Part shown: piece after piece, positions 12,738-27,015 of the stretch | How the letters are laid out: the number at the start of each line of letters is the position of its first letter | Position numbering within the stretch: position 1 is the first letter of the stretch | The notes under the pieces: model-generated | Told to the model about the DNA's origin: nothing | Database searches by the model: none | Seen by the model: the letters and a program-made list of their open reading frames with translations, nothing else | DNA from: an uncultured Chloroflexia bacterium | GTDB taxonomy: Bacteria; Chloroflexota; Anaerolineae; Anaerolineales; Villigracilaceae | DNA length: 64,000 bases | Assembly (NCBI GenBank): GCA_963828815.1 | Contig: CAWHGD010000002.1 | Span: 158,125 to 222,124 of the forward strand | Reading direction: 5' to 3' | Program-made: the position numbers and the translations under genes

Positions 12738-13436
12738 ATGGAATCCTTGCCAGACCTTACCGACAGCCTCAGGTCCGTCAGGCACTTCCGCAACCTGAGC
12801 CTGCCTGATTTGACCACGATCGTTACCGCGGGGAAAATTCGGCGCATCCCGGCAAATACGACCATTTTCACTGAAGGTGATGCATGCGCCGGGATGTATG
12901 TTTTGCTCAAAGGCCGGGTGCATCTTTTTCAACTGGGTCCTCATGGAAAAGTGAATATCGTGGCGGTCATCGAGCCTGTCATCATGTTCAACGAGGTTGC
13001 CGTCCTCGACGGGGGACCAAACCCGCTTTCAGCCCTTGCGGTTGAGAATTGCCTCGTCTGGCAGATCGACCATCCTGCCTTCCAGTCGCTGATCGAACGC
13101 ATCCCCCAGGTGGGGGTGAGCCTGCTGCGGGTGCTGGCAAAACGCAACCGGGAGATGATCGCCCGCTATGATGACCTCTCGTTCCGTTCAGTATTGGCGC
13201 GCACAGCCAAATTGCTGCTCGACCTGAGCGAAAATGGTCAAAAAGTGATCATCCGGCGCGATTGTTCCATCGAAGAGCTGGCTTCCCGCGTGGTCACCGT
13301 ACCGGAGGCGATCAGCCGGTCGCTGAATTTGCTCAAGAGAGCCGAAGCCATCCGCGTGAGTTGCAGCGAGATCTCTATCCTCTCGGCAGAAGGATTGGCT
13401 GAATTTGTCCATATCGGGTCACTGGATCACGGTTGA
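12738..13436 (+). CDS. Crp/Fnr-family transcriptional regulator (copy 1)
   Basis: 232-aa ORF with a cNMP-binding-type beta-roll (FTEGDACAGMYVLLKGRVHLF, PVIMFNEVAVLDGGPNP) plus a C-terminal HTH (ELASRVVTVPEAISRSLNLLK). No FNR-type N-terminal Cys cluster. It is a paralogue of 20981..21736. Confidence 0.85.
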   Translation: MESLPDLTDSLRSVRHFRNLSLPDLTTIVTAGKIRRIPANTTIFTEGDACAGMYVLLKGRVHLFQLGPHGKVNIVAVIEPVIMFNEVAVLDGGPNPLSALAVENCLVWQIDHPAFQSLIERIPQVGVSLLRVLAKRNREMIARYDDLSFRSVLARTAKLLLDLSENGQKVIIRRDCSIEELASRVVTVPEAISRSLNLLKRAEAIRVSCSEISILSAEGLAEFVHIGSLDHG

Positions 13437-13462: not shown

Positions 13463-14140
13463 TCATTTGCTTTCCGCGACGCGCCCCAATCCATCCTTAT
13501 CCGTCAGAACGAATTCCGTCCGGGTGACATCAATCAGTTTCCGGTCTGCAAAGCGATAGATAACCCGGCAAACCATCTCCCGGGTCGTGCCCACCCGGGC
13601 AGCCATCTCATCCAGGGTCAGGTGACGCGTGATGGCTGCCTCCCCGGCGTTCTCAAAATCATCCAGCAGCAGCCGCGCCAATCTACGGGAGATCGGCTGG
13701 AAAGCCAGTTCCTCAACGATGGCGCTGGCGCGCTGCATCCGCTGGATCATCAAGCGGCATAATTCCCAGGACATGCGCCCATGCGCGATGAAAACCGGTT
13801 CGATGATCTCACGCGACCATAAATAAACCCGCGCCGGGGTATGCGCCTCCAGGGTTGCCAGCAGCGGTGCCTGATCCTGGAAGAAAGCCAGCCCCCAGAA
13901 CAATTCGCCGGCACCGAATGTGGTAACCAGCAGGTTGCGCCCTTCCCCGGAGACCTTGACAGCATCCAGCTCCCCCTCGGCAACCAGGAACAAGTACGGC
14001 CAGACATCCCCCTGCATCACCAATGCTTCGCCTTTTTTCAAATCTTTCCTGGTCGCCTGTTTCGCCAGCAGATTACGTCCTTCTTCTTCCAGCGAGGCAA
14101 AAACAGGGTGAGTGCTCAGCAATTTATTCAACTCTTCCAT
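13463..14140 (-). CDS. Crp/Fnr-family transcriptional regulator (copy 2, divergent type)
   Basis: 225-aa ORF with a cNMP-binding fold (MQGDVWPYLFLVAEGELD) plus HTH (EMAARVGTTREMVCRVIYRF). It converges on 12738..13436 with a gap of only 26 bp. Confidence 0.85.
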   Translation of the reverse strand: MEELNKLLSTHPVFASLEEEGRNLLAKQATRKDLKKGEALVMQGDVWPYLFLVAEGELDAVKVSGEGRNLLVTTFGAGELFWGLAFFQDQAPLLATLEAHTPARVYLWSREIIEPVFIAHGRMSWELCRLMIQRMQRASAIVEELAFQPISRRLARLLLDDFENAGEAAITRHLTLDEMAARVGTTREMVCRVIYRFADRKLIDVTRTEFVLTDKDGLGRVAESK

Positions 14141-14260: not shown

Positions 14261-14303
14261 TTGCTTTAAGGCAAAGACATGACATAGACCATTGTGCTAT
14301 ATT
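14261..14303 (+). promoter_or_regulatory. FNR/CRP-like box TTGCTTTAAGGCAA plus -10 region ATTGTGCTATATT (class-II-like spacing)
   Basis: The box lies at 14261..14274 (TTG-N8-CAA) and hexamer TATATT at 14298..14303, 23 nt downstream. The box centre is about 42.5 nt before a start predicted at about 14310, so ATG 14312 would be essentially leaderless. Confidence 0.4.
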
Positions 14304-14311
14304 TCACATAG

Positions 14312-14743
14312 ATGAACACATTGAGGACAACAATCCTGATCATGCTAACCGGGGGTGCTGTGCTCTTCATTTCAGCGTGCGGAGCCCGGGAACCGGCCTG
14401 CCAGTGGGCAACAGGAACGCCCAGGTATATGACCGCCCTTCCACCGGGCTCGTCAACCGCTGAGTCGACAACCCTGTCCCCGGCGCCCGTCAAATTGGAG
14501 ATCGGAGGCAGGGAAATTCTTGTGGACCAAATCGTCGAGGGTCCTCTATGCAATGGCGCCTGGAGCGGGATCGTGTATGTCAGCTGCAATGTCCAGGTCT
14601 TCCCCTGGGAAGAACAACCCACTTTCCTGAAGGACTGTAACCTGTCCATCGAACCGGGTACGATCGTTTATGTGGCCTACCATAATGACACCGCCTATTA
14701 CAACGGGTGCTCGTGTCATACCGGAGAAATCCCTGAACCTTGA
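14312..14743 (+). CDS. Cys-rich lipoprotein of unknown function
   Basis: 143-aa ORF with signal peptide plus lipobox (VLFISAC) and six further Cys, including a C-terminal GCSCH. No SD is present. Confidence 0.6.
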   Translation: MNTLRTTILIMLTGGAVLFISACGAREPACQWATGTPRYMTALPPGSSTAESTTLSPAPVKLEIGGREILVDQIVEGPLCNGAWSGIVYVSCNVQVFPWEEQPTFLKDCNLSIEPGTIVYVAYHNDTAYYNGCSCHTGEIPEP

Positions 14744-15667: not shown

Positions 15668-17692
15668 TCAAAGATATTCCTGCTTTTCTCTCTCACGTTC
15701 CGGCCATGCCGCCACCAGGAAACCGAAGATGAACATCAGGCTGCCTATCCATAACCAGTTGATCAAGGGATTATGATATACCTTGATAGGCGCTTGCGAT
15801 GGCGAGATGTTCTCCCAGTTAATCAGTACAACATATAAATCATCTGTCAGGGTGGAGCGCACCCCGGGTATCGTCATCGACTGACCGCTCGCTGTGTAAT
15901 AGTCACGACGTGGATAGAGTTTGCCCAGAAACTGTTCTCCTCGGAAAACGCTGAGGGCAGCTCGTGAAACAAAACGCCCTTCCGTGGAAGGGAACTGTGC
16001 CAGCGAGTCAAACCGGAGGCTATACCCGGCAATTTGAATATCTTCACCCACTGCAAGTGTCTTTTGAGTGGTGGTTTGGTACACTTCAATACCCAGGATG
16101 CCAATTGCCATGACCACCATGCTGAAATGGATAAAATAGCCACCATAACGGCGACGATTATGCCTGACCAGTTGCCAGAGGGCGACCAGGAAATTCTCCT
16201 TTTCCTTTTTTTGTCGGGAAAGTACCCCGCGCAAGAACTCAAACAGCGTTACGAAGATCACAAACCCCACCAGAGTAAAACCAACCAGCGCAATCCAGTT
16301 GTGAATCCCTAAGACGGCTAACACCACCAATAAAATGATTGAAAGGATGGCTGGTTTCCACAGGGTATGTCCCAGTGTCTGGTATGTGGATCTACCCCAA
16401 GCTGAAAGCGGAGCGATACCCATTAATGCCATCAATGCACCGAACAAAGGTCCATTGGCACGCAGGTAGAACGGCGGTCCGACGGTCATTTTCTGGTTGG
16501 TTACAAGCTCCGAGATCAAGGGGAAGATCACTCCCCAGAAGCAGACAATCAAAACACCCATAAAGAGTAGATTATTGAGCAGGAATAGCGCCTCGCGCGA
16601 AAACAAGGAGTGCATCTCGACTTCAGCACGCAGGTCTTTCCAGCGATATATTAACAAGGCAAGCGATGTGACAAAGGTGATTCCGATAAAGGCAAAGAAC
16701 ATCGGACCAATGGGGCTTTGCGCGAAAGCGTGAACCGAAGAAAACACGCCGGAGCGGGTCAGGAAGGTGCCGAAGATGACCAGGGCATAGGTCAAGATGA
16801 TGAGCAGCATGTTCCATTGTTTGAACATACCGCGTTTTTCCTGGATCATGACCGAGTGCAGGAAAGCCGTCCCGGTCAGCCAGGGCATCAGGGAGGCAGT
16901 TTCAACCGGGTCCCAGGCCCAGTAACCACCCCAACCCAGCACATCATATGCCCAGCGCATTCCAAGTACCAAGCCGAGAGACAGGAATAACCAGGCAACC
17001 AATGTCCAACGACGGGTGAGACGAATCCAGCGGTCATCTGATCGTCCGGTGACCAGAGCAGCGATGGCAAAGGCAAATGGTACGACAAAAGCGACAAAGC
17101 CCAGGTACAGCATGGGCGGGTGGATGATCATGCCTGGATGGCGTAGAAGGGGATTCAGACCCTGTCCCTCCACAGGTGTGACAGCAATTGCTCCTGCAGG
17201 AGCAAACATGCGCGGCACGAAATCGCCTGCAGCAGTCTGCCACCAGCGCGCAAATGGATTTTCGAAGAGAATTGTCAGGGACAGAAAAAAAGCAAGCGTA
17301 ATCGATATCACCCCGATGACCCAGGGCAAGAGTTCGCGGTCGCGTTCCCACTTGCGCAAGGTCACAGCCGAGGCAAAGGCTGCCATGAGCCACGACCAAA
17401 GAACTAGCGATCCGGCCTGCCCGCCCCACAGGGCAGTGAGCTTGAGATAGAAAGGCATGTCGTTACTTGTCACCGAGTAGACATATTCGATTTCATAATG
17501 TCCTGTGACGAGAAGATAGGCCAACGCAAAAACCGCAAGCGAGATAAGTGGAAAAGATACTTGCATGGAACGCCGGGCAGTTTCCACCCAGCGGTCAGAT
17601 TTTTTATAGTATCCCAATACCGCCGCTACCACGCTGAAAAGTAACAGCAGGAATGTCAGCACAAATACACCAAAGCCAAATTGAGCAAGCAT
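15668..17692 (-). CDS. ccmF: CcmF/NrfE-family cytochrome c haem lyase
   Basis: 674-aa polytopic ORF with LWGGQAGSLVLWSWL near the N-terminus and the Trp-rich haem-handling motif GWGGYWAWDPVE. SD AGGAG is present. No ccmABCDE, ccmH or ccmG is adjacent. Confidence 0.85.
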   Translation of the reverse strand: MLAQFGFGVFVLTFLLLLFSVVAAVLGYYKKSDRWVETARRSMQVSFPLISLAVFALAYLLVTGHYEIEYVYSVTSNDMPFYLKLTALWGGQAGSLVLWSWLMAAFASAVTLRKWERDRELLPWVIGVISITLAFFLSLTILFENPFARWWQTAAGDFVPRMFAPAGAIAVTPVEGQGLNPLLRHPGMIIHPPMLYLGFVAFVVPFAFAIAALVTGRSDDRWIRLTRRWTLVAWLFLSLGLVLGMRWAYDVLGWGGYWAWDPVETASLMPWLTGTAFLHSVMIQEKRGMFKQWNMLLIILTYALVIFGTFLTRSGVFSSVHAFAQSPIGPMFFAFIGITFVTSLALLIYRWKDLRAEVEMHSLFSREALFLLNNLLFMGVLIVCFWGVIFPLISELVTNQKMTVGPPFYLRANGPLFGALMALMGIAPLSAWGRSTYQTLGHTLWKPAILSIILLVVLAVLGIHNWIALVGFTLVGFVIFVTLFEFLRGVLSRQKKEKENFLVALWQLVRHNRRRYGGYFIHFSMVVMAIGILGIEVYQTTTQKTLAVGEDIQIAGYSLRFDSLAQFPSTEGRFVSRAALSVFRGEQFLGKLYPRRDYYTASGQSMTIPGVRSTLTDDLYVVLINWENISPSQAPIKVYHNPLINWLWIGSLMFIFGFLVAAWPEREREKQEYL

Positions 17693-18005
17693 GAAGGCTC
17701 CTAGATGACAGATTTATTAGCATGCCATGTGCAAATAGAGCAGGATGCAATTAGGCTATTTGCCGTGAACCACCTCACTAAGGACTTCTTACTGGTATTT
17801 GGCAGGGCACTTCAGCAATAGCTCAACGGCATAGAAGATATCATTCTCTCCCAGATGACCGGTGGCAATCGACCATGCCTTATCACTCAGCATATCAGGT
17901 TGCGGGTAATTGTATACGATAATCAACCGCGCCCATGATGAATCACGGTTGCTGGGATGTCCAACAAGACGATCACATTGAATTTCGCCCGACGTTGAGA
18001 TGACC

Positions 18006-18039
18006 AAAACAATCCCCAATGCCTATGCACTGGGGATTG
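18006..18039 (-). terminator. Rho-independent terminator of the cytochrome operon (CAATCCCCA-loop-TGGGGATTG + TTTT on the minus strand)
   Basis: A 9-bp stem at 18010..18018 / 18031..18039 is followed on the minus strand by TTTTGG (18009..18004). It lies 18 nt after the stop of 18057..18749. Confidence 0.7.
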
Positions 18040-18056
18040 TAGAATAACATATATAT

Positions 18057-18749
18057 TTAGAGAGTCGGAACCTCTACTTTGACGATTTTCTGATCCTGTG
18101 TCAACCAGAGCCCCCTTGCGAGCAAGGCTATCCCACCAAGAATCAAGATCGTACCGAAGATATAGATCGGCAAAGCAAGTACGTCCACCCAATTACTTCC
18201 CATATAAATGTGCGAGGCGCCAACCCACATCGGCGTTGATAGGATGACAGCACCAGACACCATGGCTGCCAGCCCGCCACCGGTTTTTTTATCAGCACCT
18301 TTGCCGCCCTTGGTAAAATCTACTTTTGCCCGCAGACCGGGGATGAGAAGCAGCAGGAAAACGATCAGTGTGAGGACATTGATATAGAACACTACATTGG
18401 CAGGCGCAGCTTTACCGATCACCGAAAGGGATGTAAAGTAATGGATCGCGTTCAGTACCGTACCGATCCCCAGGACAATTATGGCATTTCGATATGCATG
18501 TTTACCGCCACGTATCAATCCGACCGTGACGGCAATGCCTGCAATCCCGATAGCGATCGTTGTAAAGACAAAGGTTTGATAAAGCCACCGGTAATCTACT
18601 GGCTTTATCAATATCCAATACGGAGGGTAATTCTTTGTAAAGAAGGCTGCACATGACGTGCCGGCACCGCCTAGAACATTCATGGCTGCGGTCATTGCCA
18701 TGACAACAATGGCGAATACTCGGATAATTTTTCCTGAAGTGTTTTTCAT
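18057..18749 (-). CDS. Polytopic membrane protein, unassigned family (copy A; paralogue of 26332..27015)
   Basis: 230-aa ORF and last gene of the cytochrome operon. Shared blocks with copy B:
- LGGAGTSC in TM1.
- (Y/F)xWLY...IAIG.
- GxKxAYR.
- NAIHYFTS versus GAIHMAFS.
- VLTLI(V/I)FLL..IPGL...VDF followed by a Lys/Gly-rich loop. Confidence 0.65.
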   Translation of the reverse strand: MKNTSGKIIRVFAIVVMAMTAAMNVLGGAGTSCAAFFTKNYPPYWILIKPVDYRWLYQTFVFTTIAIGIAGIAVTVGLIRGGKHAYRNAIIVLGIGTVLNAIHYFTSLSVIGKAAPANVVFYINVLTLIVFLLLLIPGLRAKVDFTKGGKGADKKTGGGLAAMVSGAVILSTPMWVGASHIYMGSNWVDVLALPIYIFGTILILGGIALLARGLWLTQDQKIVKVEVPTL

Positions 18750-18803
18750 CGCTTATCCTCCTGAAGAATTCTATATCGATACAAGCCAGAAATCAAGTAT
18801 TGA

Positions 18804-19694
18804 TTACGGCACTTCCTCTGATAAATTCCAAGGATTATTTGCAAAGTGACAACGTTCACATAACGCCTGCTTGACGATATTATGACTTGCATATGGAATC
18901 GAGGATTCAGGCAAAACTGTAACCCAATTTCCTTGCTCATCAGGGCCGACTGCCAGCCCCGCCGCGTCATGGCAAGCCCAGCAAGTCACTGCTTCGTGAT
19001 TCTTTTCATGACCTGGGATGGGAGCCGGTGGATTTAAGGCATTCGCATGGCATACTTCTGATGCACATGTAGCAGTGGTAGTATGGGCATCGTGACATTG
19101 TGTGCAGGTATACCCGGCATGTGCATTCGCAAGATCCGGCGTTTCATGACCCGCAATGTCAATCTGGCCGTGGCATTTCAGACACAGGTCGGTTGTAGAA
19201 GCGACATTCTCGTATTCATCGATCGGTGGGATCGATAACCAGGCGTACTCCGGTTGGACCTCGCCTTTTTTCAGCCGATGGCAAACGTTGCATGGTACAT
19301 TATCCCAATCGGCTTCTGCTATCGTTGGGGGCGGAGGGGCAATCTCGAATTTACAGACTGCACAACTCGCTGGCATGTCGTCCATCGAGGGGACATAGTT
19401 GATTGGCGCGTGACAGCGCGCGCACGTGCTGTTTATACCCAACACATCCAATACATAAGTATGTGCATGGGGGCTTGCCTCCCACAGGGATTGGATTTGA
19501 GAGGGGGCAATTTCTGTTGGAATACCGGTAGGTTGGGGAGCCCCGGTGGGGCTCCCCTCGTTTGATGGAACTGATGGAACCTGTGGCGACACCTGTCCCT
19601 GCGGGGGAGTCTCCTTCTCCGGTTGACAGGCGGTCAACCCTGCAACCAGGAATGCTGTTGCAATCAGACTGAGGAATAGGGTTCTACTCTGCAA
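18804..19694 (-). CDS. Multihaem c-type cytochrome lipoprotein (8 candidate haem sites, including CxxCK and CX4CH)
   Basis: 296-aa ORF with a TTG start after AAGGTG. It has a signal peptide plus lipobox (VAGLTAC) and a Pro/Ser/Gln linker. The sites, in order, are CARCH, CAVCK, CNVCH, CLKCH, CTQCH, CASEVCH, CWACH and CERCH. Confidence 0.8.
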   Translation of the reverse strand: MQSRTLFLSLIATAFLVAGLTACQPEKETPPQGQVSPQVPSVPSNEGSPTGAPQPTGIPTEIAPSQIQSLWEASPHAHTYVLDVLGINSTCARCHAPINYVPSMDDMPASCAVCKFEIAPPPPTIAEADWDNVPCNVCHRLKKGEVQPEYAWLSIPPIDEYENVASTTDLCLKCHGQIDIAGHETPDLANAHAGYTCTQCHDAHTTTATCASEVCHANALNPPAPIPGHEKNHEAVTCWACHDAAGLAVGPDEQGNWVTVLPESSIPYASHNIVKQALCERCHFANNPWNLSEEVP

Positions 19695-19721
19695 GATACA
19701 CCTTTCGAAAAAGATCTAGGG

Positions 19722-20747
19722 TTAGGGGGTCGCGGTTGGGGTTGGGACAGGCGCTCCTGCCGCCGTCAGGACGGACAGCCCGTATGTATTACCTTCTTTG
19801 TGGCAGCGGTTGCAGGAAACCATATACACAATGCTGTGCGATACGATCTCCGCTGTTGTGGAGGGTCCACCTCCGCGTCCGGGGGTGGTCAGGATGGTGG
19901 TAAAGAGACCACCCTCTACCGCCCGTCCTACAGCTGCACCGGAGGCATCGTGACAGCCCAAGCAGGTGACACCGGCCATCATGGGTGCGACCTTTGTGTG
20001 CGTATCAGCTGTATCCGTGTGACAATCCACGCACTGCTTGACCTCACCGGAGTGTGGCTCGTGGCAGTCGGTGCAGTACTTCGGGCGCTCGGCTTGCGGC
20101 CATTCACCAGCATAATTCATGTGTGCACTGCCGCCCAGGGTAACCGTGTGATTCGCTGACAATCCAGGACTACCTACCTTGGTGCCTGCCGGGTTCGCGT
20201 GGCATTTCTCACACAGTTCATTCGGGGTATTGAGCGGTTCGTACACCATGCTTATTGGAACGAGCCAGGCGATCTCTGCGCTGGCGGTCCCGTTCTCATC
20301 AACCTCATGACACTGTGCGCAAGGGATTCCCACCCACTGCTCTTCAGTAACCAAGTCCATCCCACCTTCTGCGAACGAAGGGGCAATTCGCAATTCTGGA
20401 TCGGTTGCAAATTTACAAGTAACGCAGTTTGGAGGGGCACTGGTCTTGGAACCCGGTATCCAGTTCTGCGGCGAATGGCAGCGGGTACACATGGTATTTG
20501 GGCCTTTACCAAGGTCATACGCTGCGCTATGCGGACCGATTCCCCAGGCTTCTATGAGTGCTGATTGATCCGGAATGGGTACCGGTGTTGCCGTAGGGGG
20601 GACGGGAGTGGGCATTGGAGTTGGCTCTGGCGTAGCGGCCGGCGCGCAGGCATATAGCAGCATTGTAAGTAATACGAATGCTCCAACTACGCTGAACCAG
20701 AGTTTTTTGGGTGGACCGGTTTTATGATTTGATTTATTCATGTGCAT
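19722..20747 (-). CDS. Multihaem c-type cytochrome lipoprotein (8 candidate haem sites, including CxxCK)
   Basis: 341-aa ORF with a signal peptide plus lipobox (LLYAC) and a Pro/Thr linker. The sites, in order, are CTRCH, CVTCK, CAQCH, CEKCH, CTDCH, CVDCH, CLGCH and CNRCH, collinear with 18804..19694. SD AAGGAGA favours the second ATG (20741). Confidence 0.8.
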   Translation of the reverse strand: MHMNKSNHKTGPPKKLWFSVVGAFVLLTMLLYACAPAATPEPTPMPTPVPPTATPVPIPDQSALIEAWGIGPHSAAYDLGKGPNTMCTRCHSPQNWIPGSKTSAPPNCVTCKFATDPELRIAPSFAEGGMDLVTEEQWVGIPCAQCHEVDENGTASAEIAWLVPISMVYEPLNTPNELCEKCHANPAGTKVGSPGLSANHTVTLGGSAHMNYAGEWPQAERPKYCTDCHEPHSGEVKQCVDCHTDTADTHTKVAPMMAGVTCLGCHDASGAAVGRAVEGGLFTTILTTPGRGGGPSTTAEIVSHSIVYMVSCNRCHKEGNTYGLSVLTAAGAPVPTPTATP

Positions 20748-20808
20748 TCTCCTTCCTTATTGCAATATGAAGTGCAGAGGTAACCATCACATGGTTCCAT
20801 CATTGTTA

Positions 20809-20872
20809 AAAGTATCACAATCACTCTTGCAAGTCATTGACAACTGTCAAAGTCCGACTTGATTATTGTCAA
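20809..20872 (-). promoter_or_regulatory. Two FNR-like boxes and a -10 region for the cytochrome operon
   Basis: The proximal box is a perfect palindrome, TTGACAACTGTCAA (20837..20850). The distal box is TTGATTATTGTCAA (20859..20872), with centres 22 bp apart. On the minus strand the proximal box is followed after 15 nt by ATTGTGATACT (20821..20811; hexamer TACTTT at 20814..20809). That puts the box centre 41.5 nt before a start predicted at about 20802. Confidence 0.55.
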
Positions 20873-20945
20873 GTTCGATTCAACCAAAGTCAGACATTTG
20901 GAAAAGGGGATTCTCCTCTCTTTGTAAGACTTTAACCGATTCTGT

Positions 20946-20974
20946 TTGACATTTGACCCTATATCTGATAAAAC
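20946..20974 (+). promoter_or_regulatory. Putative promoter TTGACA-17 nt-TAAAAC, 6 nt before ATG 20981 (leaderless-type)
   Basis: TTGACA lies at 20946..20951 and TAAAAC at 20969..20974. No SD precedes the start codon. Confidence 0.4.
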
Positions 20975-20980
20975 ATTAAT

Positions 20981-21736
20981 ATGGAAACACCTGAAACATT
21001 AGCAGAAAGACTTGGACATGTCAGCCACTTCTTGAAACTACCCATGGCGGACAGATTGGCCATCATCCTTGCCGGTCAAATGCGACTTTTCTCGCCCGAT
21101 TCAGTAATAATCACTGAAGGAGAGCCTTGTGCCGGTATGTTCGTATTATTACGAGGGCATGTGCACATCTGTAAACTTGGTTTAAAAGGGCAGCAAAGCA
21201 TTATTGCAGACATAGATCCAGTCATCATGTTCAACGAGGTGGCATTATTGGATGGAGGACCTAATCCATACACAGCCATTGCAACTCAAAATTCCCTTGC
21301 CTGGCAAATCAGTTACGAGGCTTACCAAAAACTGCTCCATCGATATGCCCAAGACCAATACATGGAAGTATCACTTGGCCTTCTGGGGATTATGGCAAGC
21401 CGCTATAGACAACTGTTAGAAAATTACGCCGATCTTTCTTTTCTAACTGTGCCGAATCGCGTTGCCAAATTGATTTATGAATTGAGTGCCCAAGGCCAAG
21501 TACCCATAAACCGTCATGAAAACTCGATCAACGAGATGGCTGCACACATAGCCTCTGTTCCTGAAGCGATCAGCCGGTCGCTGAACATCTTAAAATGTCA
21601 AGGAATTATTACGACATCACGGACAACTATCACCGTCCTGGAACCATTAGAGCTGGCCAGACTGGCGAAAACTGAGCTGAATAATTTATTTGTATACGGC
21701 CGTAAGAAATCAAGTATTCCAGTCTTGGAAGATTGA
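20981..21736 (+). CDS. Crp/Fnr-family transcriptional regulator (copy 3; paralogue of 12738..13436)
   Basis: 251-aa ORF with ITEGEPCAGMFVLLRGHVHIC and PVIMFNEVALLDGGPNP, plus HTH EMAAHIASVPEAISRSLNILK. It is visibly AT-richer than its neighbours (three hand-counted 60-nt lines gave 38-50% GC, versus about 60% for a line in copy 1). Confidence 0.85.
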   Translation: METPETLAERLGHVSHFLKLPMADRLAIILAGQMRLFSPDSVIITEGEPCAGMFVLLRGHVHICKLGLKGQQSIIADIDPVIMFNEVALLDGGPNPYTAIATQNSLAWQISYEAYQKLLHRYAQDQYMEVSLGLLGIMASRYRQLLENYADLSFLTVPNRVAKLIYELSAQGQVPINRHENSINEMAAHIASVPEAISRSLNILKCQGIITTSRTTITVLEPLELARLAKTELNNLFVYGRKKSSIPVLED

Positions 21737-21762
21737 TTAAGAGTTGAAAGTCGCCCCCTAAT

Positions 21763-21804
21763 TTGACATAAATCAAAGACAGTCGAAGCGCATTGTGATA
21801 CTAT
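21763..21804 (+). promoter_or_regulatory. FNR-like box TTGACATAAATCAA plus -10 region ATTGTGATACTAT
   Basis: The box lies at 21763..21776. After 15 nt comes the same 11-mer ATTGTGATACT (21792..21802) seen in the cytochrome promoter, with hexamer TACTAT at 21799..21804. The box centre is 41.5 nt before a start predicted at about 21811. SD GGAGAA precedes ATG 21871. Confidence 0.55.
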
Positions 21805-21870
21805 GTACAAAGTTCACGATGCGGGTTTGATTATTTCATTCATATCGATTACCGACGGAGAATAGCAATA

Positions 21871-23339
21871 ATGGCCAAACGTTTAAGTTTTCTCTTTCGC
21901 TCCACCAAAGGCCTGATCCTGGTGGCGATCGCCATGATCGGACTGGAGACCGCCATCTTCGGGATGCTCTCCGGCCCAATGGCTGAGTTGGGTGTGCGCG
22001 ACTTCATCATCCGCATTCCTGAAGATGGACCTTGTCCAGGCTGAGCGCGAAGGACGCATCATCATCCTGTACCACTCCATCGCCATGGCCGTGGTGGCCA
22101 TCGAAACCTACATGATCACCAGCCTGCTGAAGATGAAAGAATTCTACAAGATGGCGGTACGGGTGCTCATCACTGTTGGCTATATCCTGACCATGATCTT
22201 CGGCATGGGCTTCGCCTATTGGGGTCATAACTGGGCGCTGCATGGACTCTACATTACCGGGTTGAGTCTGATCTTCTTTGCCGGTGTCCTGCTGGTCATT
22301 GCCCTCTGGCCGTGGAACAAGGAATACTACCAGCCGGATAAAGACCTATTCCCGCACCAAAAAAGGCGTGGATATGGAGCGCGTGGCCTTCTTCGCTGCC
22401 GCTCTCACCACGGTCATTTCTGCATTATTCGGTGCTGTCCCCGGTTCGTACTTTGGCAATGGCTTTGAAACCTTCCTGGCCGAGAACATTATCCGGCCAC
22501 CCGAAAAGACCATCATGGAATACTCTGTCATCGGTCACCTGCACATCATGCTGGCGCTGATCGCCATCATGATCACCCTCATCGTCGGACGCTGGCTGAA
22601 CTTCAAGGGCATCCTGCACAAGATCGCCATGCCGTTGATGATCCTGGGTACTATCGTTCTCAACCTGGGCGTCTGGGGGGTGGTCACACCTCTCGAACCG
22701 ATCGCCCACATGATCATCTATGTCGGCGCAACACCATCCATGCTGGCGGCCTTGATGCTGGTCATTTTCACCTGGGACAAGCTCATCCGCGATGGTATTG
22801 CCGGCATCCAAAAACCGAACGGTTGGCAGAAGTTCAAGGCACTGCTTCGTGATCCACTCCGTTTCGGCCCCATGTGGCAGATGGTCTTCATGAACTTCAC
22901 CACCAGCTTTCTCGGAATTTTCATGGCTGTGCGCCTGGATGAGATCTTCCGTGTCTGGCCTGCTCACGAAGAACGCATCGAACTGACCGGCCACTGGCAC
23001 GTTCTTTCAGCCATCATCGCCACCATCATCCTGCTCTATTACGGCGATATGATCGGACTGAAGGGAAAACTCCGCCAGGTCTATGGCTGGTCCATCATCA
23101 TTCTATCCGATCTCGCCTTCGGCTCCGTCACCATCTTCGAAATGAAACGGTTGTTCATCACAGAAGCCACCCAGCAGCCATTGGTCAACACCCTCATGCT
23201 GTTGATGGACATTGGTCTTGGTCTGTTGCTGGTCGTCCTGGCGATGGTAATGATCTGGCGCTTGCTCGACCTGTTCAGGAAGAAAGGACGCTGGACGGAA
23301 GAAGTGGATCACGAACTCTCGGAGGAGGTGAGCAAATGA
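21871..23339 (+). pseudogene. His-rich polytopic membrane protein of unassigned family, split by two +1 frameshifts
   Basis: There are three collinear segments:
- 21871..22044: MAKRLSFLFRSTKGLILVAIAMIGLE...
- The 21992..22468 frame: ...KMDLVQAEREGRIIILYHSIAM...YWGHNWALHG...
- The 22278..23339 frame: ...MERVAFFAAALTT...IGHLHIML...TGHWHVLSA...
Start coordinate mod 3 runs 1,2,0, with shifts near 22000-22040 and 22340-22365. About 12 or more helices carry paired His. Confidence 0.6.
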
Positions 23340-24240
23340 AGCGCACATTTCTGTCCATCATCCTGCTTTCTGCTGTATTGGTCTCCTGCGCCTCCGTGGA
23401 CCTGAATGCCCCCGTCCCCACCTTCGACACTGGCGTGGACCCGGACTCCTGGGCTCTCATCCCGGCTGGACCCTTCCTTGACGGGTCAACATGATGACCC
23501 GGCTTCTATTGACTACGATTACCAGATGATGGTCACCGATGTGACCGTCGCGCAGTACGTGGATTTCCTGAACATTGCCCTGGCTGATGGCACGCTCAAA
23601 ATCGACAGTGAACAGATAGTCGGTTTCTACCCCGGTGATCAATTCCACGCTGTCAAGCATGAAATTGAGATTGCTGCCGCGGAATACATCTTTGTCCCTT
23701 TGAACGATCCGGCTTCGCGTTTCACCTTTGACGGCTCCACATTCTCGGTCATCCCCGGCTACGAGAACCACCCGATGACCAATGTCTCCTGGTTCGGCGC
23801 CTGGGGCTACTGCGGGTACTACGGCTTCAGCCTGCCGACCGAACTCGAATGGGAAAAAGCTGCCCGCGGATCGGCAGACAATCGTCCCTTCCCCTGGGGT
23901 GACGAGATTGCCCAAAACAACGCCAATTTCTACACCAGCCGCGATCCTTTTGAAGAAATGAGCTCCTTCGGTTCGCGCACCACTCCGGTCGGCTTCTATA
24001 ACGGGAATACTTATGACGGTTATGTTACGCTCAACTCTGCCAGCCCATACGGCCTGTACGACATGGCCGGGAATGTCTGGCAGTGGACCGGGGATGTATA
24101 CGAGGGTCAGCACTACCGCTATCATGCGCGGCGGCTCAAAGGATACCTATGACATGGATCTGCGTATCTGGGTGCGCAACAACGCCACGCCAACCTATTA
24201 CAGTCCTGGTGTGGGTTTCAGATGTGCCAGAAATCCGTGA
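23336..24240 (+). pseudogene. FGE-sulfatase (SUMF1/DUF323) domain lipoprotein, split by two +1 frameshifts
   Basis: The ATG at 23336 overlaps the upstream stop (ATGA). MKRTFLSIILLSAVLVSC is a lipobox. Then come IPAGPFL | TGQHDD...MMVTDVTVAQYVDFL...NVSWFGAWGYC...LPTELEWEKAARG...GNVWQWTGDVYEGQHYR | MRGGS...GVGFRCARNP*. Frames run 2,0,1, with shifts near 23480 and 24125. Confidence 0.7.
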
Positions 24241-24290
24241 TCAAAGTAGTCTTGGATGTGGTGCCTTGAATATAATGGTATAAATACCAT

Positions 24291-25189
24291 TTGATCCTCA
24301 TAGAGAAAAGTCTGGAGAACTCCGTGGCTGAAATGATCGCAAAATTCCGTCTCTATTGGTCCCTTACTAAATCTCTACAGACAGGCCTGCTGCTCGCCAC
24401 CGGCCTGGCGGGGTACATGACTGCCCGCTGCCCGGTGATGCACTGGTACGATTTTCTTGGACTGGCCGTGAGCCTGTTCCTGGCGATCGCAGGCAGCACG
24501 ATCATCAATATGTGGTATGACCGCGATATCGATGCTGTCATGAACCGCACTCATCACCGACCGATGGCGGATGGACGCGTTGCCCCTGCCGAAGCCCTGC
24601 GGCTGGGACTGGTTTTTTCGGTGCTGGGTGTCGGGATGGCAATCGCCATGTCCCCCCTCTACGGATTGATCGTTTTTGCCGGGCTGTTCTTTGACGTGGT
24701 GATTTACACGCTGTGGCTCAAGCGGCGAACCTGCTGGAGCATCATCTGGGGAGGGATCGCAGGGGGCATGCCCATCCTGGCCGGGCGCGCCTTTGGCACC
24801 GGTTCCATTGACGGCATCGGCATCCTGCTTGACCCTGGCAGTATTGTTCTGGATCCCCACCCACATCCTGACCTTTTCCATGCGCTACTTCGACGATTAT
24901 CAGGCTGGCAAAGATACCAACCTTCCCATCCACCTATGGTTTTCACGCCACTCGCCTCACGATCGCAATCTCGAGTGTCCTCGCGGCTGCCTGCATCGCA
25001 ACGGCCGGCGTCCTGATCGGAATCGAATGGGGCTTCCTTCGGCTTCTGGCTGTGCTCTCTAGCGGATTGCTTATCCTGGCGGTAGCCAGTATCTTCCGAC
25101 CCTCCGAACGCGTCAACTTCGGGCTGTTCAAATACGCTTCCATGTACATGCTGGGAGCCATGCTCCTGATTTCGTTGAGCGTGTTGTGA
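24291..25189 (+). pseudogene. ctaB: Protohaem IX farnesyltransferase (haem O synthase, CtaB/CyoE-like UbiA prenyltransferase), split by two +1 frameshifts
   Basis: NMWYDRDIDAVMNRTHHRPMADGRV and WGGIAGGMPILAG are CtaB-like. The protein continues in the next frame (LAVLFWIPTHILTFSMRYFDDYQAGK) and then a third frame (IPTFPSTYGFHATRLTIAI...LLISLSVL*, stop at 25187..25189). Frames run 0,1,2, with shifts near 24830 and 24912. The likely start is ATG 24333. Confidence 0.7.
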
Positions 25190-25791
25190 AAATAACCGTC
25201 ATCAACCGACTCATTCTCCTGGTAATGTGCCATGTTGCCGGATACCAGATCATTACCGGCGTTGAGGGATTGGCAACCCTCCCAATGATTGCCTACACCA
25301 TCGGCTTCGGTATCCTGCTCGTTGCCGGATTGCTGATCATCATCCTCGGTTATGATGCGCTGGATAGCCCGGTCGTGGTTATTCTTTCGACGGTCATCCC
25401 GCTCAGCCTATCGCTGGGGCTGGTCTGGGAGCACTTGACCGTATACCGGACACTCTATCTGGTTTTCGTCATCCTCGGGTTCCTGGCAATTGTCATCACC
25501 CGCTCCTTTCCAATGAAGAATAAGCTGCCGGTCATCGTACTGGCATGTGTTCACGGTATCGCCGGGATGACAATCTTCCTGCTTCCCTTCTTCCTGGTTT
25601 TCACCGGCAGTGTTGCCCCCGGTTTCGTCTTGGTTGGCCTGGGCGGAGCGCTGATTGGCCTGGGGGGGTTGTTACTTTCCTTCCTGAAAACCGGTAAACC
25701 CATCCTATCTCGAATTACGATCTTGAAGATCCTGCCAGGGTTGCTTTTAGTTACAACTGCCGCCTTTGTGCTCGGTTTTTCTGCAGCTTGA
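25186..25791 (+). CDS. Polytopic membrane protein of unknown function
   Basis: 201-aa ORF with a GTG start overlapping the ctaB stop (GTGA), about 6 helices and Gly-rich C-terminal helices. Confidence 0.5.
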   Translation: MKITVINRLILLVMCHVAGYQIITGVEGLATLPMIAYTIGFGILLVAGLLIIILGYDALDSPVVVILSTVIPLSLSLGLVWEHLTVYRTLYLVFVILGFLAIVITRSFPMKNKLPVIVLACVHGIAGMTIFLLPFFLVFTGSVAPGFVLVGLGGALIGLGGLLLSFLKTGKPILSRITILKILPGLLLVTTAAFVLGFSAA

Positions 25792-25815
25792 TTTCTTATC
25801 CTGGGAGCAAACTCT

Positions 25816-26262
25816 GTGGAACAAACATCGAAATGGAACCCTGCAACAAAGAAAATCTGGCTGCATCTCACTGCCGGAATCATTTGGTCGGGTGTGGGTA
25901 TCATGCTGGTCGCGTTTGCCACCGGTTGGCTGGGTACGGTCCATTCATGGATAGTCGTTCTACTGATTTTGGCTGGCTCGCTTCTGGCTACCGGGATTTA
26001 TTTCTTTGGCTTTTCAAAACTGGCCTTCAGCAACATCCTACGCATCAACAATATTCCCAGGGAAAGGGTTTGCATATTCGCCTTCCAGAAATGGACTAGC
26101 TACCCCCTGGTCCTGGTGATGATCGCCATGGGGATCTACCTGCGCCGGTTCTCCCCCATCCCCAAGCCTTACCTGGCGATCCTGTACCTCGGGCTGGGCG
26201 CAAGCTTGTTTGTTTCCAGCCTCCAGTACTATTCTCAAGTAGTACGCGCCAACCGTACATGA
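25816..26262 (+). CDS. Small membrane protein of unknown function
   Basis: 148-aa ORF with about 4 helices. No family recognised. Confidence 0.5.
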   Translation: MEQTSKWNPATKKIWLHLTAGIIWSGVGIMLVAFATGWLGTVHSWIVVLLILAGSLLATGIYFFGFSKLAFSNILRINNIPRERVCIFAFQKWTSYPLVLVMIAMGIYLRRFSPIPKPYLAILYLGLGASLFVSSLQYYSQVVRANRT

Positions 26263-26280
26263 GCATCTACTGTCCGCGCG

Positions 26281-27015
26281 TTGCTACTTCGGTTGGACAA
26301 TTTATTCCCGATATTCGATAAGGAGAAGATTATGTCAAGAAATAAGTGGTGGGCCAGGCTTTTGCGTATTGTCGGGATCGTCTTCATGAGTCTGACTGCG
26401 CTCTTTACCTTGCTGGGCGGCGCGGGCACATCCTGCGTGGCCCTCAACCCGACCGGCTTCGGTGCTACGTTTGCTCCGATCGCCAAATTCCAGTGGCTGT
26501 ACATCCTGTTTGTACTCGTCACAGTTGCCATTGGGGTCATGGGAGTCCGGGCAGTTGTCTTGCTGGTTAAGGGCAGGAAGAACGCCTATCGTTACTCACT
26601 GATCGCGCTGCTGGCAGGTGTTGTGGTTGGTGCCATCCACATGGCATTCTCGCGCACTTTGCGTGGTGGATCCTCCATGCCCGTGGATATGGTCGTATAC
26701 ACCACCGTGCTGACCCTGATCATCTTCCTGCTTTTCCGCATCCCCGGTCTCTGGCAGGGTGTTGACTTTGCCAGGCCCGAGGGCGAAAAGAAGACAGGCA
26801 AACAGGCTGCTGCCATCGCCCTGGGCGCTACCGGCCTGCTATCTCTCACCATTCAGTTCCTGATGGCCCCCACCCACACGATCAACGGTATCAATTACGC
26901 GGATGTCTGGCATACAGCGCTGACATTCCTCGGTCTTGCATTGATCCTGGGTGCTGTGGCGACGGCGGTCATTACTGAATTCTCACTGTTACGGCGCAAG
27001 TCGCTGGCCGAATAA
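26281..27015 (+). CDS. Polytopic membrane protein, unassigned family (copy B; paralogue of 18057..18749)
   Basis: The track ORF starts at TTG 26281. ATG 26332 (MSRNKWW...), preceded by AAGGAG, is the likely start (227 aa). It shares LGGAGTSC, WLY, KNAYR, GAIHMAFS and VLTLIIFLLFRIPGL..VDF blocks with copy A. Confidence 0.65.
   Translation: MLLRLDNLFPIFDKEKIMSRNKWWARLLRIVGIVFMSLTALFTLLGGAGTSCVALNPTGFGATFAPIAKFQWLYILFVLVTVAIGVMGVRAVVLLVKGRKNAYRYSLIALLAGVVVGAIHMAFSRTLRGGSSMPVDMVVYTTVLTLIIFLLFRIPGLWQGVDFARPEGEKKTGKQAAAIALGATGLLSLTIQFLMAPTHTINGINYADVWHTALTFLGLALILGAVATAVITEFSLLRRKSLAE

Follow-up and report, generated by a model that had tools for sequence, protein, structure and literature searches.

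Why should two promoters that face away from each other, about 1 kb apart and on opposite strands, carry the same box, the same distance and the same 11-mer? The question is raised by a stretch of 64,000 nucleotides (nt) from an uncultured Chloroflexia bacterium (GTDB order Anaerolineales, family Villigracilaceae; assembly GCA_963828815.1, contig CAWHGD010000002.1, positions 158,125 to 222,124 of the forward strand), which is called the window throughout. One promoter precedes a minus-strand operon for multihaem c-type cytochromes, the other a plus-strand operon for membrane proteins, and an earlier note on this DNA had read them as FNR-type class II promoters of a dedicated local regulon. As judged from the sequence and its conservation, both are probably promoters of the sigma-70 type whose activity depends on a Crp/Fnr-family dimer bound at the class II position.

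Every sequence of the box, 15 nt, 11-mer arrangement described in that note was found where it had been placed at both promoters. On the minus strand, the proximal FNR-type box of the cytochrome promoter (TTGACAGTTGTCAA, 20850..20837) is followed by a 15-nt spacer (TGACTTGCAAGAGTG) and by the 11-mer ATTGTGATACT (20821..20811), which runs into the hexamer TACTTT (20814..20809). On the plus strand, the FNR-type box of the membrane-protein operon (TTGACATAAATCAA, 21763-21776) is likewise followed by a 15-nt spacer, the 11-mer ATTGTGATACT (21792-21802) and the hexamer TACTAT (21799-21804). The gap between box and hexamer is 22 nt in both cases and, with starts predicted 7 nt after the hexamer (20802 and 21811), both box centres lie 41.5 nt upstream of the start; the two claimed distances were thus reproduced on the window sequence. 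The cytochrome transcript start is predicted at about 20801-20804, the membrane-operon start at about 21811. The two 15-nt spacers are unrelated to each other, so that the module is neither a repeat nor a recent duplication.

The 3' end of each box abuts a weak -35 element (a/tGAC), the last box base being the first base of the -35 hexamer. This GAC stands at the -35 core position, with a 17-bp spacer to the -10, and has no symmetric counterpart across the box, for which reasons it was read as a weak -35 abutted by the box. Such an overlap is usual at class II promoters. The core cytochrome promoter (20802..20836, minus strand) accordingly comprises tGAC (20836..20833), TGTG at -17..-14 (20819..20816), TACTTT and a conserved TAACA (20808..20804), and the core membrane-operon promoter (21777..21811, plus strand) comprises aGAC (21777-21780), TGTG (21794-21797), TACTAT and a conserved GTACA (21805-21809). 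The second cytochrome box that had been placed 22 bp further upstream is also present: it reads TTGATTATTGTCAA at 20859-20872 (minus-strand feature TTGACAATAATCAA, at about -63.5), and its centre is offset from that of the proximal box by exactly 22 bp.

Box, adjoining GAC and -10 hexamer are kept in about a dozen related Anaerolineae loci (numbered here with the prefix L), while the spacer sequence drifts. Relatives that share the synteny all have nGAC right after the box, then a stretch that varies, and then TGnTAnnnT, whose hexamer starts exactly 22 nt past the box; at every TTGA-type box compared (about 12 lineages) the gap, measured to the predicted -10, is 22 nt. The proximal cytochrome box and its 22-nt gap are kept in L001, L002, L030, L035, L036 and L037, the box and gap of the membrane operon in L001, L003, L004, L006, L014, L026, L030 and L035, and the tandem cytochrome boxes with their 22-bp offset in L001 and L002. 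In the aligned intergenic regions of orthologous loci, conservation is limited to the boxes, the GAC, TTGTGnTAnnnT (TTGTGATAyT) and a short block just downstream; the consensus of 14 non-redundant promoters is TTGa...aagtCAA.GAC.ttc.......aTTGTG.TAt..T..ACa. The arrangement persists in L035-L037, where cytochrome identity is only 50-62%. TAnnnT is the sole -10 register that is invariant across relatives, which fixes the -10 and with it the geometry; the alternative register GATACT was rejected, since relatives do not keep its key positions. Two regulator homologues without synteny (L005 and L007) were left out as evidence. The closest relatives of the regulator encoded between the two promoters all come from Anaerolineales/Anaerolineae (Chloroflexota) genome bins; the L030 and L031 regulators are 97.6% identical to that of the window, and the L030 DNA is 92.7% identical over an aligned 7.3 kb.

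Which protein would occupy these boxes? Between the two promoters lies a plus-strand gene (20981..21736) for a Crp/Fnr-family regulator of 251 amino acids (aa) with the Pfam domains cNMP_binding and HTH_Crp_2 and the recognition helix VPEAISRSL; its orthologues adjoin the box in L001-L006, L030, L036 and L037. A paralogue at 12738..13436 (plus strand), 46% identical to the 20981 protein, has the identical VPEAISRSL helix, and a third regulator of 225 aa at 13463..14140 (minus strand), divergent from a third promoter (P3, below), has the helix TREMVCR. The three had been taken as one set, but their recognition helices give two specificity classes, A and B. The class A helix V-P-E-(A/V)-(I/V)-S-R, found in the local proteins and in their orthologues at TTGA-type boxes, aligns with V-E-T-I-S-R of FNR, the class B helix T-R-E-M-V-C-R of the 13463 protein and its orthologues aligns with S-R-E-T-V-G-R of CRP, and the CRP-like R-E---R triad occurs in class B only. 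In CRP the bases are contacted by Arg180, Glu181 and Arg185, and experiments showed a Pro180/Glu181/Arg185 variant to activate from an operator in which position 5 is T (TTGA) but not from the wild-type GTGA operator (PMC2677863). Given the TTGA preference of the Pro180 variant, the class A helix (P-E--SR) fits the TTGA boxes. The class A regulator 20981, its 12738 paralogue or both are likely candidate binders of the TTGA-N6-TCAA boxes, the 20981 regulator being the most likely one. Pairing boxes with paralogues by helix type was dropped, since L035 is an exception.

Taken strictly, the label FNR/CRP does not fit these proteins. In alignment with E. coli FNR, none of the three regulators has the N-terminal extension or cysteines equivalent to the FNR cluster (C20, C23, C29, C122), and the cyclic AMP (cAMP) residues Arg82/Ser83 of CRP are replaced by Pro-Tyr in class A and by Leu-Leu in class B. 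Scores of the NCBIfam equivalog models for FixK, FtrB, Fnr and CRP fall far below the curated cut-offs for all regulators. Among solved structures the closest are those of actinobacterial CRP/GlxR-type proteins and of DNR, and even there the similarity is low (DNR PDB match 5e-10). The class A helix and the box type TTG(A/C)-N6-(T/G)CAA fit the FixK/DNR/NnrR pattern, with no equivalog model matched. From their residues, the signal is predicted to be sensed neither via the iron-sulphur (Fe-S) cluster of FNR nor as cAMP; a haem-based or redox-based nitric oxide (NO) or O2 signal is plausible, judged from the cargo genes.

The regulator gene 20981 has a candidate promoter of its own at 20946-20981 (TTGACA, 14 nt, TGATAAAAC), kept in L001. 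Transcription from it would begin at the ATG (20981) or beside it, and a Shine-Dalgarno sequence is lacking; the regulator mRNA may hence be leaderless. That the distal cytochrome box might be the class II site of the regulator gene was also considered and rejected, as there is no plus-strand -10 at the right distance in the window or in L001. Likewise rejected was a plus-strand promoter scanner call, TTGACA(20837)-18-GATTAT, made up of halves of the two cytochrome boxes, the orientation of which is not kept in L001.

At each promoter a class A dimer would bind the 14-bp palindrome TTGAC-N4-(G/A)TCAA about 41.5 bp upstream of the predicted start and would contact RNA polymerase from there, turning both promoters on together. 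In E. coli, 19 of the 23 FNR-activated promoters have their site at -41.5 ± 4, that of nrfA included, and repressing sites are scattered (PMC3688515). At the level of sequence the FNR-type class II reading of the earlier note stands: the distance to the invariant TAnnnT is fixed at 22 nt in all orthologous promoters examined while the spacer has diverged, and the regulator between the promoters has TTGA-type helix residues. The second cytochrome box, two helical turns upstream, would probably serve co-operative or enhanced activation.

A third promoter of the same design, P3 (14261..14308, plus strand), would drive genes of the same cluster from a TTGC-N6-GCAA box one base further away. Its box (TTGCTTTAAGGCAA, 14261-14274) is followed by aGAC and, after 16 nt, by ATTGTGCTATATT (14291-14303), which ends in the hexamer TATATT (14298-14303). 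The sequences and the 16-nt spacing previously given for 14261-14303 are thus right, but the box is the TTGC-N6-GCAA variant and the gap to the hexamer is 23 nt. P3 is kept in L024, L026, L029, L035 and L037 and partly in L036; its box in relatives, TTGCyTwAAGGCAA, lies within the FixK2/NnrR-type consensus TTG(A/C)-N6-(T/G)CAA. A perfect CRP-type palindrome, TGTGCTATATTTCACA (14293-14308), is centred exactly on the P3 -10 hexamer and is kept in five other lineages.

Several points weigh against activation from the class II position. The -41.5 position rests on a predicted -10. The usable GAC -35 core and the full extended -10 may give substantial activity without the activator, and repression by a dimer that overlaps the -35 is conceivable. 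A simple consensus promoter scanner, which requires a -35 match, made no call at either promoter. With three Crp/Fnr paralogues encoded nearby, sequence analysis does not single out the one that binds the boxes. The distal cytochrome box, at about -63.5, is not at a canonical class I position and is absent from the distant L035-L037. Finally, six frameshifts in the membrane-protein operon (detailed below) mean that its promoter may drive a defective operon here, or that the assembly is locally poor.

What, then, is the shared 11-mer? It had been taken for a module in its own right. Its content is TGTG (T-17G-16T-15G-14), one base and then TAnnnT, that is, a full extended -10, and the identity of the two copies is largely that of core promoter, extended -10 plus hexamer, possibly with half a CRP-type operator, and not of a separate module. 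That it is core promoter and nothing else, its identity following from few free positions and the downstream ACA reflecting a discriminator or initiation-region preference, we put at a little under an even chance. Seven of the 11 positions are set by TGTGnTA plus the hexamer start, and the free positions vary in relatives (TGATACCAT, TGATATTCT, TGGTATCCT). Promoters with a weak -35 typically have a strong extended -10. The T-17G-16T-15G-14 motif is, moreover, already described for the M. tuberculosis RNA polymerase (PMC6212719). This explanation leaves the conservation of ACA at -4..-2 and the perfect P3 dyad unaccounted for, and other probable extended -10 promoters in the window are without the upstream TG: among the 19 non-coding TGnTAnnnT sites of the window, TG stands immediately upstream only in the three regulon promoters.

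The upstream TG, together with an 'AC' at -4/-3 that is conserved in 12 of the 14 non-redundant promoters, makes up a dyad of CRP type, TGTGn-N6-nnACA, with the -10 hexamer as its spacer. It is possible, although we would not call it probable, that the class B 13463 protein represses from this putative dyad (at about -9.5) in addition to the activator at -41.5. The P3 dyad is perfect (TGTGC-TATATT-TCACA), and a GTGA-N6-TCAC core lies over the -10 in six lineages (the window, L024, L026, L029, L035 and L037). If transcription began at the base after the conserved AC (column 47), its start would be only 5 nt past the hexamer, too close for this to be likely. The class B regulator, with its CRP-aligned helix, is always divergent from P3 (also in L024, L026, L029, L035 and L036), and at the L029 membrane promoter a further site of CRP type, TGTGATTTATGTCACT, occupies the class II position, 33 bp upstream of the -10 dyad. 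Such dual control has to be set against the TGTG at -17..-14 being a recognised extended -10 motif in itself. The right half amounts to no more than nnACA at the promoters of the cytochrome and membrane operons, and L006, L014, L036 and L037 lack it altogether. The P3-linked regulator of L035 has P, not R, at the first triad position, yet the L035 P3 dyad is still perfect. Within the window TGTGCTATATTTCACA is the sole TGTG-N8-CACA site, a single match that is not significant (0.6 expected).

That the regulator of the TTGA-type boxes acts instead as a repressor, placed at the -35 edge of an otherwise constitutive promoter (GAC plus extended -10), is improbable. The last box base is indeed the first -35 base, and the core elements are fairly good, but a site of Crp/Fnr proteins fixed at -41.5 is a hallmark of activation and repressing sites are broadly scattered (PMC3688515); a 22-nt spacing held strictly over deep divergence also points to a stereospecific contact with polymerase and away from simple occlusion. 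Chance likeness, a dispersed repeat, or recent duplication or gene conversion between the promoters is effectively refuted by the comparative data: although the count of TTGA-N6-TCAA alone is not significant (3 copies in 64 kb, all three at these promoters, against 1.45 expected), the composite TTGA-N6-TCAA-N19-TGnTAnnnT occurs twice where 0.02 are expected (none of 100 shuffles reached 2), the exact 11-mer is found at these two places only in the 64-kb window, the 15-nt spacers differ, and about a dozen genomes have the same elements at the orthologous places. The composite count and this recurrence also uphold the claim that the likeness is unlikely to be chance. In a weight-matrix scan the three TTGA-type boxes scored 20.6-21.9 bits against a best score of 15.7 in 20 shuffled windows; the matrix was built from the boxes of relatives and of the window, the scored sites included, so that the scan is partly circular. 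No further site rose above this noise level (15.7 bits) in the 64-kb window.

What would class II activation control here? The cytochrome operon (15668..20747, minus strand) encodes two multihaem c-type cytochromes (19722-20747 and 18804-19694), paralogues 30% identical to each other and each with six or seven CXXCH motifs and one CXXCK, then a 230-aa membrane protein (18057-18749) and a haem lyase of the CcmF/NrfE family (15668-17692). Two CXXCK cytochromes encoded together with their own CcmF/NrfE-family lyase is an arrangement known from NrfA, the catalytic haem of which is bound by CXXCK. In the predicted 5' leader of this operon lies an inverted repeat, AACCAT-GTG-ATGGTT (20778-20795, minus strand), partly kept in L001 and not in L002. 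No Rfam family matched over 12-28 kb of the window, this repeat included, and a riboswitch or leader element is hence not indicated.

The membrane-protein operon (21871..27015, plus strand) encodes an oxidase-like membrane protein of 488 aa (21871-23339), an FGE-sulfatase-like protein (about 23336-24240), a haem O synthase of the UbiA family (about 24291-25173) and two further membrane proteins, one of 201 aa (25186-25791) and one (26281-27015) that is a paralogue of the 230-aa protein of the cytochrome operon. These paralogues of about 230-244 aa, one in each of the divergent operons, are 38% identical (E 3e-38) and have the motif GGAGTSC in common. The intact UbiA-family protein of L030 passes the TIGR01473 cut-off for haem O synthase (220 bits against 210). 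Compared with L030, the window has six single-base insertions, two each in the genes for the oxidase-like protein (+1 at 22014 and 22344), the FGE-like protein (23482 and 24123) and the haem O synthase (24832 and 24906), and no frameshift insertion in 4 kb of the cytochrome operon. The six are not obviously in long homopolymer runs; either the membrane operon is decaying in this organism or the local assembly is faulty. Between the haem O synthase and 201-aa protein genes, L030 and L031 have a gene for a hemerythrin/RIC (YtfE, DnrN)-like protein (L030 7314-7874) that is missing from the window (about 25173-25276), and the cluster of L028 holds DUF1858, cupin and CopD-like genes. These neighbours hint at a link to NO or metal stress.

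The operon behind P3 (14312..15551, plus strand) encodes a Cys-rich putative lipoprotein of 143 aa and a membrane protein of 258 aa. The gene start at 14312 is close to the P3 -10, similar to the situation at the ATG of the regulator gene at 20981. In L024, L026, L029 and L035 the P3 operon stands directly upstream of the oxidase-like gene or of the cytochromes, and by its gene order it is part of the same conserved cluster as the cytochromes and the membrane-protein operon. The proposal of a dedicated local regulon agrees with this, the P3 operon, the cytochromes and the membrane-protein operon being found side by side or in one operon elsewhere. In L035-L037 the genes for regulator, cytochrome, cytochrome, membrane protein, FGE-sulfatase-like protein and haem O synthase follow one another in one direction, with a promoter of the box-dependent type before the first cytochrome and, in L035, another before the membrane gene. 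In the clade of the window (the window, L001, L002 and L030) the cytochrome half is inverted and the regulator gene lies between divergent promoters. An ancestral-type single operon of cytochromes and oxidase-like protein, as in other Anaerolineae, would have been split into divergent halves around the regulator, each half retaining a box-dependent promoter, by which the two would have stayed co-regulated.

Members of the family to which the oxidase-like protein belongs are about 490 aa long. It has more than 3,186 homologues in the database, none of them named, and clustering at 50% leaves only 330 representatives. Searches of Pfam, NCBIfam and PDB sequences with the protein returned no match, and none of 41 close and 10 distant family members matched Pfam COX1, even with the threshold relaxed to E<=10. 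Across members only 23-30% identical, H124, H222, H224, H279, H374 and H376 are invariant, and H68 nearly so; in P0123 (785 aa) the oxidase-like protein is fused to an FGE-sulfatase domain. An AlphaFold model built from a diverse alignment reached a predicted local distance difference test (pLDDT) score of 84.5 and a predicted template modelling score (pTM) of 0.88; an earlier model from close homologues only was poor (pLDDT 62) and gave the same oxidase subunit I matches. Foldseek matches of the model with a template modelling (TM) score above 0.4 were all subunit I of haem-copper oxidases (ba3, bo3, aa3, cbb3, cNOR), the top ones having TM 0.5-0.61 and probability 1.00, at weak E-values (at least 7e-3) and a root-mean-square deviation of about 7 Å. 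Non-oxidase chains of low TM and low probability are interspersed in the Foldseek list (e.g. ranks 15, 17 and 18), and unrelated folds have TM below 0.25. The model has the 12-helix fold of subunit I, and the protein has neither a COX1 sequence nor the canonical six histidines. The histidine spacing of the family resembles the canonical ligand set (in ba3 numbering), but the arrangement differs, with HxH plus a single H against H...HH. Given the fold, the adjoining haem O synthase and the cytochrome c partners, it is a reasonable hypothesis that the modelled protein is a very divergent oxidase- or reductase-like enzyme.

Taken as a whole, it is rather unlikely, if worth stating, that the promoters mark the regulon of a hitherto unrecognised respiratory enzyme widespread in Anaerolineae, possibly a new family of O2, NO or N-oxide reductases, composed of a COX1-dissimilar oxidase-like subunit with seven histidines, an FGE-like partner, a haem O synthase and two CXXCK cytochromes with an NrfE-type lyase, and set by an FNR-type activator at -41.5 together with a CRP-type repressor over the -10. 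No prior description of the regulon or of the oxidase-like membrane-protein family was found in the literature. The promoter design itself is textbook, and its value lies in the handle it gives on the controlled genes: the promoters tie an unnamed oxidase-like family to multihaem cytochromes, a haem O synthase and Crp/Fnr sensors, which points to a regulated respiratory function in Anaerolineales. These bacteria are abundant in sediments and wastewater, and their physiology is poorly understood. The conserved box and spacing furnish a motif for locating further members of the regulon in complete genomes, and the CRP-type dyad over the -10, if real, would amount to compact combinatorial control by paralogous Crp/Fnr proteins in Chloroflexota.

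Among known systems, the controlled enzyme is best set beside subunit I of the haem-copper oxidases (ba3, cbb3, NorB of cNOR), with which it has in common the fold, an H-x-H in a late helix, seven conserved histidines and haem O synthase and cytochrome c neighbours; unlike them it has no sequence match and is coupled to an FGE-sulfatase-like protein. The CRP/GlxR-type repressors that sit over the -10 (TGTGA-N6-TCACA) compare with the R-E---R triad of class B and with the near-consensus TGTGn-N6-TCACA on the P3 hexamer, whereas the equivalents of the cAMP-binding Arg82/Ser83 are missing here and the operator is putative. We know of no described system that pairs, in one promoter, a CRP-type site on the -10 with a class II box of FNR type whose regulator is a paralogue encoded at the same locus.

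The class II promoters of E. coli FNR (narG, dmsA, nirB, nrfA) have the same 14-bp palindrome, of the type TTGAT-N4-ATCAA, at -41.5, where it overlaps a weak -35; their regulator likewise has an E--SR helix and their targets are respiratory, and the nrfA operon also pairs a CXXCK cytochrome with an NrfE-type lyase (PMC3688515). The regulators of the window differ from FNR in having no N-terminal Cys cluster, and so no O2-labile [4Fe-4S] sensing mechanism; further differences are a helix that starts with Pro and not Val, a half-site TTGAC and not TTGAT, the full TGTG extended -10 and the Chloroflexota host. The boxes of FixK2, NnrR and DNR, which in denitrifying Proteobacteria control nor, nir, nos and cbb3 genes, are alike in that they are served by Crp/Fnr paralogues without Fe-S clusters, in sets or cascades, and that the FixK2 consensus TTG(A/C)-N6-(T/G)CAA takes in both variants found here, TTGA..TCAA and TTGC..GCAA (PMC6710368). 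Their targets are haem-copper-type reductases and oxidases with c-type cytochrome partners, and DUF1858 and RIC/hemerythrin-like genes accompany the cluster in some relatives. They differ in that no equivalog model matches the regulators, DNR is only a weak PDB match, and the controlled enzyme cannot be recognised as a Nor, Nir, Nos or Cco. As read from its sequence, the promoter architecture works like that of FNR, FixK and DNR promoters, a known design in an unstudied phylum.

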